Part shown: in pieces, positions 6,285 to 13,072 of the stretch
How positions within the stretch are numbered: position 1 is the first letter of the stretch
Layout of the letters: every line of letters starts with the position of its first letter
Assembly (NCBI GenBank): GCA_016708565.1
Contig: JADJFN010000001.1
Coordinates: forward strand, 348,863 to 412,862
From: Myxococcales bacterium
GTDB taxonomy: Bacteria; Myxococcota_A; Polyangia; Haliangiales; Haliangiaceae
Length of the DNA stretch: 64,000 bases
Direction: 5' to 3'
Position numbers and translations under genes: made by a program
The notes under the pieces: generated by a model
Told to the model about the DNA's origin: nothing
The model's input: the letters and a program-made list of their open reading frames with translations, nothing else
Databases searched by the model: none

Positions 6285-9200
6285 GTGGCTGAGCGCACCA
6301 GCACCGTGACGACGTGGGCGCTGGCCCGCGAGCTGCCGTCGGGCGCGACCACGTGGGCGCCGGTGGTGGCGCCCGAGCTGTGCGCGTTCGGCGACGGCGA
6401 CGCGCCGGCCGACGAGCTGCGCGTGTTCCTGGCCGAGCACCTGGCGACCGCGCCGGCGGCGCAGGTGGCGCGGTACTTCGTGCCGGCCGGCCTCGAGGTG
6501 GTGGCGATCGCGGTGCCGCTGGCGCCGGGGGCGCCGACCAAGCCGCGGGCGCCGCGCGACGTCGAGGTCACCTGCGTGCTCCTGCCGTACGGCCCCGAGG
6601 GCCGCGATCGCGTGGCGCTGGTGCCGGCGCTCGATGCGGCGTTCTTCGTCGATCGCAAGGAGGAGGTGGGCGAGGTGGCGCGGCGCGAGATCGCGCGGCT
6701 GTGCGCGGCCAGCGGCCTCGACGGCAACGCCTGGCGCCGCCTGCTGCCGCCGCTGGCGGCGTCGATCGAGCCGCTCGAGGTGCTGGTGCGGTTCGCGCAG
6801 GCCGAGGTCACCGGCGCCGATCGGGTCGCGGCCGAGGAGCGGCGCCGGGCCCGCGAGCGGCTCGAGGCCCACGCGGTGCCGCTGGCCGATCGGGTGCGCG
6901 GCGGCGGCGCGGCGCTGGTCGGGCGCGATCGCGAGCTGGCGTCGATGACCGCGCTGCTGGGCGGGCGCGAGCGGCTGGCGGTGCTGGTGTGCGGCGACGA
7001 GGGCGTCGGCAAGACCGCGATCGTCCTCGCGTGGGCCCGGGCCCAGCCGCAGCGCGCGGCGTGGGTGACGTCGGTGGCGCAGCTGGTGGCCGGCGCGTCG
7101 GGCTTCGGCGAGGCCGAGGCCCGGGTGGCCGACCTGTTCGCGGCGGCCGAGCGGCTCGACGCGGTCTTGTGCTTCGACGACTTCGGCAGCCTGTTCCGCG
7201 AGCGGGTCGAGGACGGCGGCCTGGGCCTGACCGCGATCGTGCGCCGGTTCATCGTCGACGCGCGGGTGCGGGTGGTCGCCGAGATCACGCCGGCGGCGCT
7301 GGAGCGCGCCGAGCGCCGCGAGGTGGCGCTGATCGGCGCGATGACCCGGCTGACGGTGCCGGCGATGGACGCCGCGGCGACGCTGGCGGTGGTGACCGGG
7401 CGCGCCGCGCACTGGCGCCGCGCCGACGCGCGCCGGCCGCAGCTCGCCGCCGCGGCGTTGTCGGTCGCGGTCGAGCTGGCGCGGCGCTACCTGCCGTACC
7501 GCGCGTTCCCCGGCAAGGCGGTGACGCTGCTCGACGATCTGCGCGCCGCGGCCGACGGCGAGGTCGGCGCCGACGGCGCGCCGCGCGAGCTGGGCCCCGA
7601 CGCGGTCTACGACGGCTTCGCCGCGGCCACCGGCGTGCCGGCGTTCCTCTTGCGCGACGATCGGGCGCTGCTCCTCGACGAGCTGATCGCCCGGCTGCGC
7701 ACGCGGATGATCGGTCAGGAGGCGGCGGTGGCGCGGGTGGCCGAGACGCTGTGCACGGTCAAGGCGCAGCTGCAGCCGGCCGACAAGCCGCTGGCGACGT
7801 TCCTGTTCGTCGGGCCGACCGGCGTCGGCAAGACCGAGCTGGCCAAGAGCCTGGCCCACCTGCTGTTCGGCTCCGAGGGGCGGCTGGTGCGGTTCGACAT
7901 GAGCGAGTACGCCGATCCATGGGCGGCCGAGCGGCTGATCCGCGGCAGCGACGCCGGCGAGGGCCTGCTGACCGCGCGGATCCGCCAGCAGCCGTTCGCG
8001 GTGGTGCTGCTCGACGAGATCGAGAAGGCGCACCCGGCGGTCCACGATCTGCTGTTGCAGGTGGCGGGCGAGGGCCGGCTGACCGACGCCCGCGGCCGCA
8101 CCGCGTACTTCCACAACGCGATCGTGATCCTGACGTCGAACCTCGGCGCCCACGGCCGGGCCGCGGCGATCGGCCTGGCGGTCGGCGCCGGCGACGACGA
8201 TCGCGCGCGCGAGCTGGCGCGCTACCGGGCCGCGGTGACCGAGGCGTTCCGCCCCGAGATGCTCAACCGCCTCGACGCGATCATCCCGTTCCATCGCCTC
8301 GACGCCGCGCAGATCGCCGCGGTCGCGGGGCTGGCGCTGGCCCAGCTCTCCGAGCGGCGCGGGCTGGTCCAGGCCAGCATCACGCTCGACGTCAGCCCGG
8401 CGGCGGCGGCGGCGCTGGCGGCCGGCGGCTACGCCCCGGCCTACGGCGTGCGCGCGCTGCGCCGCCACCTGGATGAGGCGGTGATCGCGCCGGCGGCGCG
8501 GCTGGTGGCGCGGCTGGGCAAGGACGCCCACGGCGCGCTGCTCGCGGTGCGCACCGTCGACGAGCCGGCCGCGGTCGACCTGCCGGCCGGCGCGCACCTG
8601 GGCACCACCGAGCCCGAGGCCGGCGTGGTGGTGGCGGCGTGGCGGCGCGGCGGGGCCGGCGGTCGCAAGAACGCCCGCGGCGCGCTGGCGGTGGCGGCGG
8701 TGCGGCGGGTGGCCGACACCTGGATGCGCCACGACGTCGCCACCGAGGTGAAGACCCAGATCGCGTGGCTGAAGTCGCAGCTGGCGCGCGGCGCGGCGCA
8801 GCCCGGCGGCGCGCAGGCCGGCAAGCGCAAGAAGGCGGCGCTGTCGAGCGCGCAGGTGCAGCAGATGAGCATCGAGCTGGCGCGGCTCGAGCGGGCGTGG
8901 GACGCCGCGGCCGCGGCGCAGGAGGACCTGGCCGCCGCCGAGGAGCTGGCGATCGCCGCGGCCCAGGCCGGCGACGACGTCGAGGCGGCGGTGGCGATGG
9001 CGGGGCCGCTCGAGGACGCGTTCACGACCGCGATGTTCTGGCTGGCGGTGGCGCGGCGCGAGGATCGCGACGAGATCACGCTGACCTTGTCGGCGCCCGA
9101 GCACCCGCGCGCGCTGGGCCGCTGGGTGACCGGCATGCTCGAGCTGGCGGCGGCGCGCGGCTGGACCGTGCACGCGCACCCGACGGTGGCCAAGGAGCCG

Positions 9201-12700: not shown

Positions 12701-13072
12701 CTGTTCGCGCGCGCGGCGTTCACGCCCGAGCACGGCACCCACTTCTTCCAGTCGCTCACCGACGAGCCCGAGGTGTACCGGGTCGAGGTGCGGCCCGGCG
12801 ATCAGCCGCTGGCGCCGCTGCTGCGCGCGCACGCCGAGGCGCTGGCGGCGTTCGAGGCGGCGCAGGCCGCGGGCGTCGCCGGGCCGCCCAACCCCGAGGC
12901 GCTGCTGCCGGCGGTGCGGACGCTGGCGGCCGCGCCCGGGCAGCGGCCCGGCGAGGCGTTCGTCGCCGACGTCGAGGACTTCGTGATCGGCCTGGCGACC
13001 CGGCAGCACGCGGCCAGCCTGGCCGAGGTGGTGCGGGCGCTGTGGCACGTCCGCTGGAGCCACCGGCCATGA
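9704..13072 (+). CDS. ClpA/ClpC-like AAA+ ATPase, paralog 2 of 3. D1 has a degenerate P-loop. There is a ~330-aa C-terminal extension.
   Basis: The GTG start at 9704 overlaps the upstream TGA (GTGA), which implies translational coupling. The D1 P-loop is degenerate: VLVGRPGSGRATLL, with Arg where Lys would be and Ala where Thr or Ser would be. The D1 Walker B is LLWFDDLHLF. D2 is canonical: YLFTGPTGTGKTELATALA, FAVVLLDEIEKAHP, MTSNLG and GARTVKR. An IGF tripeptide sits at the ClpP-loop position. Confidence 0.75.
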   Translation: MKRTYAITVYERKVEGTLTWTPLVPPGLIAALSGKSEVRLREQLGKLLAAAVRQVEPEQHELFETAPGTRLHHVSLDLNLRERGRVGGRFPLVLEPRWFTDARQRLLAYHPADPSAWFDADDVHEVERLAAHFARQAWASDDVTALEAKKSAAKERLITVSFDLAPRTLLDRAKAAAEGKQRAGLARSVRQHLAQLGVDQTARAIDGTLPMGVPRPAYRAQLARLLGGPRPRSTVLVGRPGSGRATLLARWVGDRLEADGWYLHRNADRVHRVWRLSGKRLIAGMQYFGDWEDRLLDLVTDARAHRGLLWFDDLHLFGRLGVTRQSERSFADFFRGPVQRGELTIVATATREQLARLEDDAPSFAQLFARVAVEPTDAAETAALMLAEVRRLEAEHPVEVHPFTPRTVYELATSLYPWTATPGGPIDMLRKLVAAAGPRPAPGARRALPPEAAVAQAARDTGLPEHLITLDAPLDPAAVTAHFAARVIGQDEAVAVATDVVVKVRAGLTDPGRPLGVYLFTGPTGTGKTELATALAEYLYGERRRLVRLDMSELAGPDAVARLIGDRFTPDGLLTSRIREQPFAVVLLDEIEKAHPSVLGLLLQLFDEGRLTDAGGEVASFRHAVIVMTSNLGARVQQPIGFGDSTEAVLGQIAKAVREFFPPELWNRIDRVVRFRPLTAEVAARVVDKELAKLLGRRGLRERDVFVYAGRAVRERAVAQAFDPRFGARTVKRWLEEHVAGALTEALTEAPPARMTVARLREEAGAIAVTLELVPEAVAWGGGFPLIEARELSAAALVPAAEAMADRIDALLATDPVGRALATLRARPDGERGRYFVEHFADELAALRTTLVGRRRARPGPIAPEAHEEHDLEAWPREAHVEKSGAWSQRREVRRYDPRSGDRAPKAAAGQAATLAALARAELLLGHVDELADPDAHVVTVLVTPVGVVGGGPRPLGWGLLEALRAVADQAMARTKDGRIEAYQAPAVGHVQRAFAVRDLFARAAFTPEHGTHFFQSLTDEPEVYRVEVRPGDQPLAPLLRAHAEALAAFEAAQAAGVAGPPNPEALLPAVRTLAAAPGQRPGEAFVADVEDFVIGLATRQHAASLAEVVRALWHVRWSHRP

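Follow-up and report, generated by a model that had tools for sequence, protein, structure and literature searches.

Release-factor-like modules without a GGQ domain at the C-termini of two of three co-encoded ClpA-like ATPases from Myxococcota

Clp/Hsp100 motors owe their specificity to accessory domains; in ClpG/ClpK, ClpV, Hsp104 (acidic C-terminal tail), and SKD3 (ankyrin domain), lineage-specific accessory domains joined to an Hsp100 core set the choice of substrate or partner, and we know of no release-factor-like domain in any of these proteins. To our knowledge, the ribosome is the site of action of every release factor (RF) and of the relatives described so far (PrfH, ArfB/ICT1). We analyzed a 64,000-nucleotide stretch of DNA from a Myxococcales bacterium (contig JADJFN010000001.1, positions 348,863 to 412,862; hereafter the window) in which three consecutive genes, here named par1, par2, and par3, encode ClpA-like double-AAA+ ATPases; the products of par1 and par2 continue beyond the ATPase core as long C-terminal tails (tail 1 and tail 2). 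Each tail is a degenerate class-I RF module, that is, it contains the helical domain 1 and the alpha/beta superdomain of domains 2/4 and is without the GGQ domain.

The three genes, all on the + strand of the window, and the layout of the first are:

6285–9707, + strand: par1, 1140 amino acids (aa), ClpA-like double-AAA+ gene with tail 1 (open reading frame; phase of the G+C content at third codon positions, GC3; Pfam)
par1 layout: N-domain, aa 1–205; first AAA+ module (D1), ~206–440; second AAA+ module (D2) and D2-small, ~441–786; tail, to aa 1140
9704–13072, + strand: par2, 1122 aa, ClpA-like double-AAA+ gene with tail 2 (open reading frame, GC3 phase, Pfam)
13069–15339, + strand: par3, 756 aa, third paralogue, without a tail; it ends 33 aa past D2-small

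Adjacent genes share stop/start overlaps of 4 nt (GTGA for par1/par2 and ATGA for par2/par3). Measured from the end of the Pfam ClpB_D2-small match (aa 741 in par1, 749 in par2, and 723 in par3), 399, 373, and 33 aa remain, respectively; measured past the final beta-strands of D2-small in the structure models, the tails are ~350 aa (par1) and ~340 aa (par2), in agreement with the ~380 aa and ~330 aa of a preliminary description of this DNA, and the peptides quoted there are all found in the translations where it placed them. The tails proper occupy ~8508–9704 and ~11951–13069; the range given in that description (8560–13072) includes them but also spans the N-terminal and AAA+ parts of par2. 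Its remark that such tails are unusual for Hsp100 proteins is right, and its judgment that they are gene-like and not of low complexity holds except for one charged linker of ~55 aa in par2.

The tails truly belong to par1 and par2 and are conserved. The window has ~76% GC with a GC3 of ~0.98, and at this composition long spurious open reading frames (ORFs) occur in every frame; in addition, the genes are in pieces in one related metagenome contig (L001). Both facts would fit an explanation in which the tails are separate from the ATPases, that is, genes in another frame or products of read-through, misassembly, or frameshift, as the preliminary description had allowed; we consider this explanation vanishingly improbable. 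The codon-position GC profile shows that each gene keeps one high-GC3 phase (~0.98) from start to end, through the tails as well, and neither a stop nor a change of phase interrupts it; the ORFs are uninterrupted in at least 12 independent assemblies, in GenBank, and in 76 full-length database representatives; conservation at the protein level extends to the final residues; and L001 is exceptional in being frameshifted throughout. In GenBank, MBK7070950.1 (1140 aa) is 100% identical to the product of par1 and MBK7070951.1 (1122 aa) to that of par2, so an independent gene caller arrived at the same ORFs; both are named there only as "ATP-dependent Clp protease ATP-binding subunit".

When either tail alone was searched against 5.8 billion proteins, just 1 and 2 matches were obtained. 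Scanning species-representative genomes with the tail 2 alignment gave 12 loci, one of them 97% identical to the window, from metagenome-assembled genomes labeled Myxococcales, Kofleriaceae, Deltaproteobacteria, or Proteobacteria bacterium; a scan of metagenomes gave 29 further loci with identical synteny. In these 12 genome and 29 metagenome loci the order par1-par2-par3 and the overlapping stop and start codons are kept wherever the contig extends far enough; across the genome loci the proteins span 1127–1144 aa (par1), 1091–1128 aa (par2), and 749–759 aa (par3), and both tails can be aligned among orthologues to their extreme C-termini. An exhaustive HMMER search with the tail 1 profile found at least 208 clusters (50% identity) at E ≤1e-3 in Myxococcota metagenomes. 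Each of the 149 newly listed matches is of the par1 type (the full-length ones, 76 representatives, have a median length of 1133 aa), so among the matches listed the RF-like module is met only at the C-terminus of this ATPase. In the deeper clade the tails share 31–39% identity, as compared with 45–70% for the AAA+ modules; the charged linker of tail 2 is the sole part that varies freely (12–21% identity). As a separate observation, all three ATPase genes are divided by frameshifts into 2–4 pieces in the syntenic contig L001 (JGI Ga0558719_17038); this looks like error-prone assembly and explains the short fragments (e.g., P0002) returned by the first protein searches.

Applied to the full proteins, routine tools (Pfam, NCBIfam, PADLOC) identify the AAA+ core only and nothing significant in the tails, and PDB sequence-profile searches with both tails return coiled-coil noise and no RF; to this extent the earlier statement that the tails have no recognizable domain stands. 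However, profile–profile alignment (hhalign) and structure comparison find RF domains 1 and 2/4 in them, which refutes that statement by the refuting condition set in the preliminary description itself (a match to known domains), and the fold prediction that the preliminary description had proposed gives AlphaFold2 models for which RF1/RF2 are the top structural matches. The features of tail 1 are:

8640–8669, + strand: junction loop between D2-small and tail 1, WRRGGAGGRK (aa 786–795), basic and glycine-rich (alignment)
8655–9047, + strand: four-helix region (aa 791–921), corresponding to RF domain 1, the helical 'GTPase-interacting' domain (AlphaFold2, hhalign)
9072–9617, + strand: alpha/beta domain (aa 930–1111), corresponding to the RF codon-recognition superdomain (domains 2/4)
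9186–9278, + strand: family-specific insertion of ~31 aa, VAKEPAPDWPLARVWGPPRSRAWLAGQTGPD, with W..WGPP conserved (gap opposite in RF1, hhalign)
9642–9704, + strand: acidic, low-confidence C-terminus of par1 (aa 1120–1140; predicted local distance difference test score, pLDDT, <50 for the final 8 residues)

In the tail 1 model the helices span residues 50–73, 76–97, 114–154, and 159–180. The alpha/beta domain contains an invariant GLExGxHRF motif (9336–9362), and in the alignment the surrounding pattern, "G.GA..L.GLE.G.HRF.G.....H..V", resembles the PCRF domain of release factors. The Pfam PCRF model (PF03462) matches tail 1 at this motif, below its gathering threshold: the best score is 12.3 bits (E 0.15) against a cut-off of 24 bits, in three of 12 sequences, and the best E-value among tail 1 members is 0.073. 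The ~31-aa insertion falls at a short loop of RF1; its residues W235, W241, and G242 (numbered within tail 1) are invariant, and P243 and P244 are at least 90% conserved. The final residues of par1 (aa 1113–1140) carry a net charge of −8.

The evidence that carries the assignment of tail 1 is an hhalign profile comparison, which is independent of AlphaFold, with a reference alignment of 12 RF1/RF2 sequences (E. coli and diverse plasmid/chromid records). A profile of 12 tail 1 sequences against the lone E. coli RF1 sequence gave a marginal result (E 0.06); with 32 tail 1 sequences against the RF alignment the P-value is 1.4e-5, and with 144 sequences (Neff 6.2) the probability is 95.5% and E is 1.3e-8, over 243 collinear columns that run from the N-terminus of RF1 through the end of domain 2. 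Each half is significant by itself (P 6e-4 for the helical half against RF domain 1 and P 1.7e-5 for the alpha/beta half against RF domain 2); controls with reversed sequences and unrelated N-terminal domains gave P 0.17–0.95. Tail 1 is thus very probably derived from an RF.

The junction loop that precedes tail 1 has the consensus W-R-R-x4-G-[RK]-[RK], and it reads RRGGQGGRR in some orthologues (e.g., P0018–P0023) and RRGASTGRR in the larger clade. We considered whether the RRGG[AQ]GGR form could be left over from the GGQ motif and decided against it: the loop precedes domain 1 instead of lying between domains 2 and 4, and the larger clade does not conserve it. Its likeness to the 'SGAGGQ' of RFs is probably a coincidence.

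For tail 2 the assignment rests on structure more than on sequence. Its features are:

12056–12259, + strand: first three helices (aa 785–852), the proposed equivalent of RF domain 1 (AlphaFold2, pLDDT 84–92)
12266–12424, + strand: variable linker (aa 855–907), Asp/Glu/Arg-rich and predicted to be disordered (pLDDT 32–43)
12434–13057, + strand: fourth helix and alpha/beta domain (aa 911–1118), with secondary structure in the same order as in tail 1 and RF domains 2/4
13043–13069, + strand: extreme C-terminus of par2, WH[VL]xWS[RH] (aa 1114–1122), conserved in loci L002–L010 and L028–L055

The first three helices include the conserved motif GELRYYVDEL; the linker (~55 aa) varies in length in the alignment; further conserved motifs are DPDAH (within 12494–12514), [ED]HGT[HW] (within 12728–12748), and PDVVRVE. 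The conservation of the terminal WH[VL]xWS[RH] indicates that the reading frame of par2 is under selection up to its end. Pfam finds no PCRF in tail 2, and nothing coherent was found in any tail 2 sequence at E-values up to 10. A comparison of the two tails with each other, which the preliminary description had also proposed, did not relate them by sequence: BLASTP finds no similarity, and hhalign gives P 0.2–0.5 for tail 2 against tail 1. The models have the same order of secondary structure.

These results invite the explanation that the RF likeness is convergent or a modeling artefact, at least for tail 2, and that the tails represent one or two new folds. Consistent with this, the PCRF match is only half of its cut-off (12.3 against 24 bits), the PDB sequence profile finds no RF, and the tail 2 model has a mean pLDDT of 64, with Foldseek TM-scores of 0.16–0.31. 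Nevertheless, the first 19 Foldseek matches of tail 2 are exclusively RFs, and RFs are at or near the top in two different structure-comparison programs; the best local profile alignments always pair one and the same strand (EHGTHFF in tail 2, EVGAHRF in tail 1, and ESGGHRV in RFs); and for tail 1 the sequence-only comparison (E 1.3e-8, with clean controls) does not involve a model at all. We hold the explanation by convergence or artefact to be quite improbable, and we regard tail 2 as likely, if less securely than tail 1, to be RF-derived.

In RFs the GGQ peptidyl-hydrolase domain (domain 3) is an insertion within the codon-recognition domain (PMC6514570). At that site the models of the tails have ~25–40 residues, compared with ~90 in RFs; in tail 1 these form a linker of ~25 aa that includes a single short helix, and in tail 2 the single helix is longer. 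The GGQ-domain family RF-1 (PF00472) is not matched by Pfam in either tail, and no GGQ is conserved: the tripeptide turns up in 13 of 144 tail 1 sequences, there outside the position homologous to that of RFs, and in none of 36 tail 2 sequences; without this domain, the modules cannot hydrolyze peptidyl-tRNA. The tails resemble RF1/RF2 in having domain 1 followed by domains 2/4 in the same secondary-structure order and, in tail 1, the ExGxHR strand motif; they differ in that RF1/RF2 are free-standing proteins, whereas the tails extend an AAA+ ATPase at its C-terminus and bear additions of their own (the 31-aa W..WGPP insertion in tail 1 and the 55-aa disordered linker in tail 2). Lacking a GGQ domain and codon-reading motifs and with PCRF below threshold, they are not members of RF1/RF2.

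Other RF relatives have been reduced in the opposite direction. PrfH (RF-H, of the PrfH-RtcB2 ribosome-repair pair) keeps GGQ and has lost domain 1, and ArfB/ICT1, with which MRPS35 is grouped as truncated RF paralogues, consist of the GGQ domain only, whereas in the tails domains 1, 2, and 4 remain and the GGQ domain has gone (general knowledge and PMC6514570). The same survey of RF-domain architectures mentions AAA+ proteins only for Vms1–Cdc48 and does not mention ClpB, and in the open-access literature covered we found no report of a fusion between an RF and an AAA+/Clp protein. The RF–Clp fusion is a new domain architecture, derived from both known lineages and not categorically new.

The ATPase cores themselves are of class-1 Clp/Hsp100 type, with two AAA+ modules and ClpB_D2-small in all three paralogues. 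Pfam detects AAA_2 (E ~1e-39) and ClpB_D2-small in each; D1 is identified by Pfam AAA in par1, by AAA_16/AAA_22 at the P-loop in par3, and by alignment with the ClpA model in par2. The closest PDB sequences are the D2 modules of ClpB and ClpC. No NCBIfam equivalog is reached (ClpA, ClpB, ClpV, ClpG, ClpK: best scores of 261–315 bits against cut-offs of 885–1900, that is, 3–7 times below), and the ClpG, ClpK, and ClpV models match the AAA+ core only. The NCBIfam ClpA model covers par1 and par2 in a single stretch from ~aa 185, which leaves no room for insertion of an M-domain, and Pfam finds no Clp_N in any of the three; in place of Clp_N the proteins have conserved N-domains of ~200 aa:

6285–6899, + strand: N-domain of par1
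9704–10348, + strand: N-domain of par2
13069–13698, + strand: N-domain of par3

The N-domains have no match in Pfam or NCBIfam, the par3 N-domain (the one searched against PDB as a profile) has none in PDB, and they resemble neither RFs nor tail 1; between those of par1 and par3, which are acidic, hhalign finds a weak similarity (E 0.04), and that of par2 is basic (pI 9.7). By their scores, the absence of Clp_N and M-domain, and a dead D1 Walker B (see below), the three proteins are not members of ClpA, ClpB, ClpC, ClpV, ClpG, or ClpK.

A further likeness to ClpA is a tripeptide, [LIVA]-G-[FLI], that follows sensor-1 in every orthologue (IGL/LGL in par1, an invariant PIGFG in par2, and VGF/AGF in par3). 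Its place in the alignment is that of the IGL in E. coli ClpA, the ClpP-docking loop of that protein, and it has no counterpart in ClpB; the ring may accordingly be able to dock on ClpP, as judged from this motif. In the window the sites, from motif alignment, are:

8163–8183, + strand: AAIGLAV, par1
11618–11635, + strand: PIGFGD, par2
14920–14937, + strand: GVGFGG, par3

The proteins thus resemble ClpA/ClpC in the two AAA+ modules, D2-small, the tripeptide at the IGL position, and an alignment with the ClpA model that has no M-domain gap; however, ClpA/ClpC have Clp_N where these have the ~200-aa N-domain, and they are homo-hexamers of one protein, whereas here three paralogues are co-encoded and two bear C-terminal tails of 340–400 aa. 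The 4-nt overlaps (translational coupling), the strict co-occurrence, and the complementary loss of motifs among the paralogues suggest one mixed ring. The family would be an Hsp100 whose ring is probably hetero-oligomeric, with D1 inactive and with pore loops that are not alike in all subunits.

A recruitment or partner-binding role for the tails, as the preliminary description had suggested, is plausible, and the ribosome is our candidate partner because it is the only one known for the RF fold; we know of no other. On the ribosome, domains 2/4 of an RF occupy the 30S decoding site and domain 1 lies at the factor-binding site, facing outward, so the N-terminus of domain 1, to which the ATPase is attached here, would be solvent-exposed. 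We tentatively propose that the RF-like tails are non-catalytic docking arms of a ClpA-like motor, most plausibly for the ribosomal A site. In this proposal par1, par2, and par3 would assemble as a single hetero-oligomeric ring, and the pseudo-release-factor modules would hang as arms from the D2-small of two of the three paralogues, directed at the A site and the factor-binding site. Through these arms, which cannot release peptides themselves, the ATPase would be directed to ribosomes in which the A site is accessible; the motor would then exert force on the nascent chain or on a bound factor, or assist in splitting the ribosome, with ClpP as a possible sink.

RF-like proteins that work with ATPases provide a precedent (Vms1–Cdc48 and Dom34; PMC6514570): Dom34 is catalytically inactive, and Vms1 is a peptidyl hydrolase that binds the AAA+ protein Cdc48 (PMC6514570). 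Dom34/Pelota–ABCE1 and Vms1–Cdc48 are functional analogies only, in that each couples an RF-like recognizer of stalled ribosomes to an ATPase. They have the unrelated aeRF1 fold, their components are separate polypeptides, and ABCE1 is an ABC and not an AAA+ ATPase; the present system is built from bacterial parts and is a covalent fusion.

Several observations count against docking on the ribosome, beginning with the motor. The catalytic Glu of the D1 Walker B is missing in all three paralogues (FDDF in par1, W[FI][DE]DLH in par2, and [FV]DRL in par3), and the GYVG pore loop of D2 is 5–6 residues shorter and retains an aromatic residue only in par2; with these two changes, processive threading is uncertain. 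The sites are:

7170–7187, + strand: D1 Walker B of par1, FDDF (window sequence)
10631–10648, + strand: D1 Walker B of par2, WFDDLH (window sequence)
13963–13980, + strand: D1 Walker B of par3, FADRL (window sequence)
7941–7970, + strand: D2 pore loop of par1
11396–11425, + strand: D2 pore loop of par2
14701–14730, + strand: D2 pore loop of par3

The Walker A of D1 is kept, except in par2 of the window's subclade, where it reads GRPGSGR[AS]T (10415–10441; Lys to Arg) instead of the GPPGSGK[TS] of the larger clade; the D1 pore-loop Tyr is present in par2 and par3 and absent in par1; and in D2 the Walker A, Walker B (DE), and sensor-1 are canonical. The tails are located at the D2 face, which in ClpA is the face of substrate exit and ClpP docking and not that of entry.

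The tails themselves add to these objections. In the hhalign alignment, 'RAGTGGDEA' of RF1 (helix alpha5 at its G-rich start) lies opposite 'LSAPEHPRA' in tail 1, and 'VPATES' (the loop with the PAT tripeptide) lies opposite a shorter 'GIA-KES'; the elements that read stop codons (PxT/SPF and the G-x-G-G-x-E of alpha5) are therefore not retained in tail 1, and tail 2 cannot be aligned reliably at these positions. To judge from these alignments, the modules are unlikely to read stop codons. The elements through which RFs touch the peptidyl-transferase centre are lost as well. The alpha/beta domains have net charges of −1 and −6, that is, they are neutral to acidic, unlike the surface expected for binding of rRNA. 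Finally, the model of tail 2 is of medium confidence (built from 9 sequences), and hhalign comparison of tail 2 with RFs, as with tail 1, was never significant (P 0.2–0.5), whether with shallow or deeper alignments, whole tails, the alpha/beta part alone, or relaxed mact.

The genome neighborhood gives a link to translation no support: neither the window nor any of the loci has a gene for a prfA/prfB/prfH-like GGQ protein, arf, smpB, hpf, or clpP, and the window has no tRNA gene and no Rfam family. The conserved neighbors are instead a membrane protease and a regulator. In the larger clade a gene for an Rce1-like CPBP (CAAX-protease family) membrane protease overlaps the start of par1, and a gene for a Crp/FNR regulator, 93–99% identical across loci, follows par3; the window has neither gene at these positions.

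L004, 3406–4338: Rce1-like CPBP gene; equivalents in L005, L008, L009, L031, L032, L035, L037, L044, and L047

Because its end overlaps the start codon of par1, the Rce1-like gene is probably co-transcribed with par1.

These observations bring forward another explanation, namely that the RF-derived tails have been re-used off the ribosome, in assembly of the ring, in regulation of the D2/ClpP face, or in binding of some other substrate or adaptor; as variants, they could provide auto-regulation in place of the missing ClpB-type M-domain, or they could bind a partner linked to the co-transcribed Rce1-like membrane protease. Re-use of this kind would account for an RF-like fold that has lost the ribosome-reading motifs and the GGQ domain, for tail surfaces that are not basic, for the absence of translation genes nearby together with the overlap of the Rce1-like gene with par1 in the larger clade, for the position of the tails at the D2 face beside the IGL/IGF motif at the ClpP-loop position of ClpA, and for an atypical motor without M-domain or Clp_N domain. 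It does not readily explain why the entire two-domain RF arrangement, helical domain 1 included, is retained in both tails, or why the invariant ExGxHR strand motif common to RFs is retained in tail 1; moreover, the Rce1-like gene is absent from the clade to which the window belongs. We consider such re-use a possibility to be taken seriously, if a doubtful one.

The surroundings of the cluster in the window's subclade consist of a divergent lipoprotein gene and an alpha-2-macroglobulin gene upstream and a LysR gene downstream. Further observations in the window are:

3–2324 and 2279–4774, − strand: alpha-2-macroglobulin gene (Big_5, bMG3, MG2 upstream part), seemingly divided between two ORFs that overlap and lie in different frames
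4894–6198, − strand, and 16222–16923, + strand: hypothetical proteins flanking the cluster that match no family and bear lipoprotein-type signal peptides (LAGC lipobox)
16927–21538, − strand: Ser/Thr kinase with TPR repeats, FHA-domain protein, and TPR protein (sub-threshold metallopeptidase matches)
22180–23538, + strand: MgsA/RarA-type AAA+ gene

The apparent split of the alpha-2-macroglobulin gene lies around 2279–2324, and a single gene of >2053 aa is called in L001; a frameshift, real or introduced in assembly, may be the cause. Conservation of the flanking lipoprotein-type proteins does not go beyond the closest relatives (L001, L002, and L028), and the kinase/FHA/TPR row, which the MgsA/RarA-type gene follows, is also found in L002 and L003.

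Returning to the docking proposal, its most specific form is a hetero-hexameric motor that would insert two types of GGQ-less arm into the A site when a ribosome is stalled, damaged, or hibernating, and would spend ATP on drawing out nascent chains or bound factors (with ClpP as a possible destination) or on splitting the ribosome; we hold this form to be rather unlikely, but if it were true, the system would be a bacterial, fused counterpart of Dom34–ABCE1 and Vms1–Cdc48 and a novel route of ribosome rescue or quality control. At lower odds, a codon-recognition domain without the GGQ insertion may preserve the architecture that RFs had before that insertion.

In either case, two of the three Clp ATPases encoded together in a conserved family carry an RF-derived module from which the catalytic domain has been lost. 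Should the arms bind ribosomes, the family would represent an ATP-driven, RF-guided bacterial machine for ribosome rescue or remodeling, analogous to those of eukaryotes and archaea; if they do not, it would be a clear case of the RF fold re-used elsewhere.

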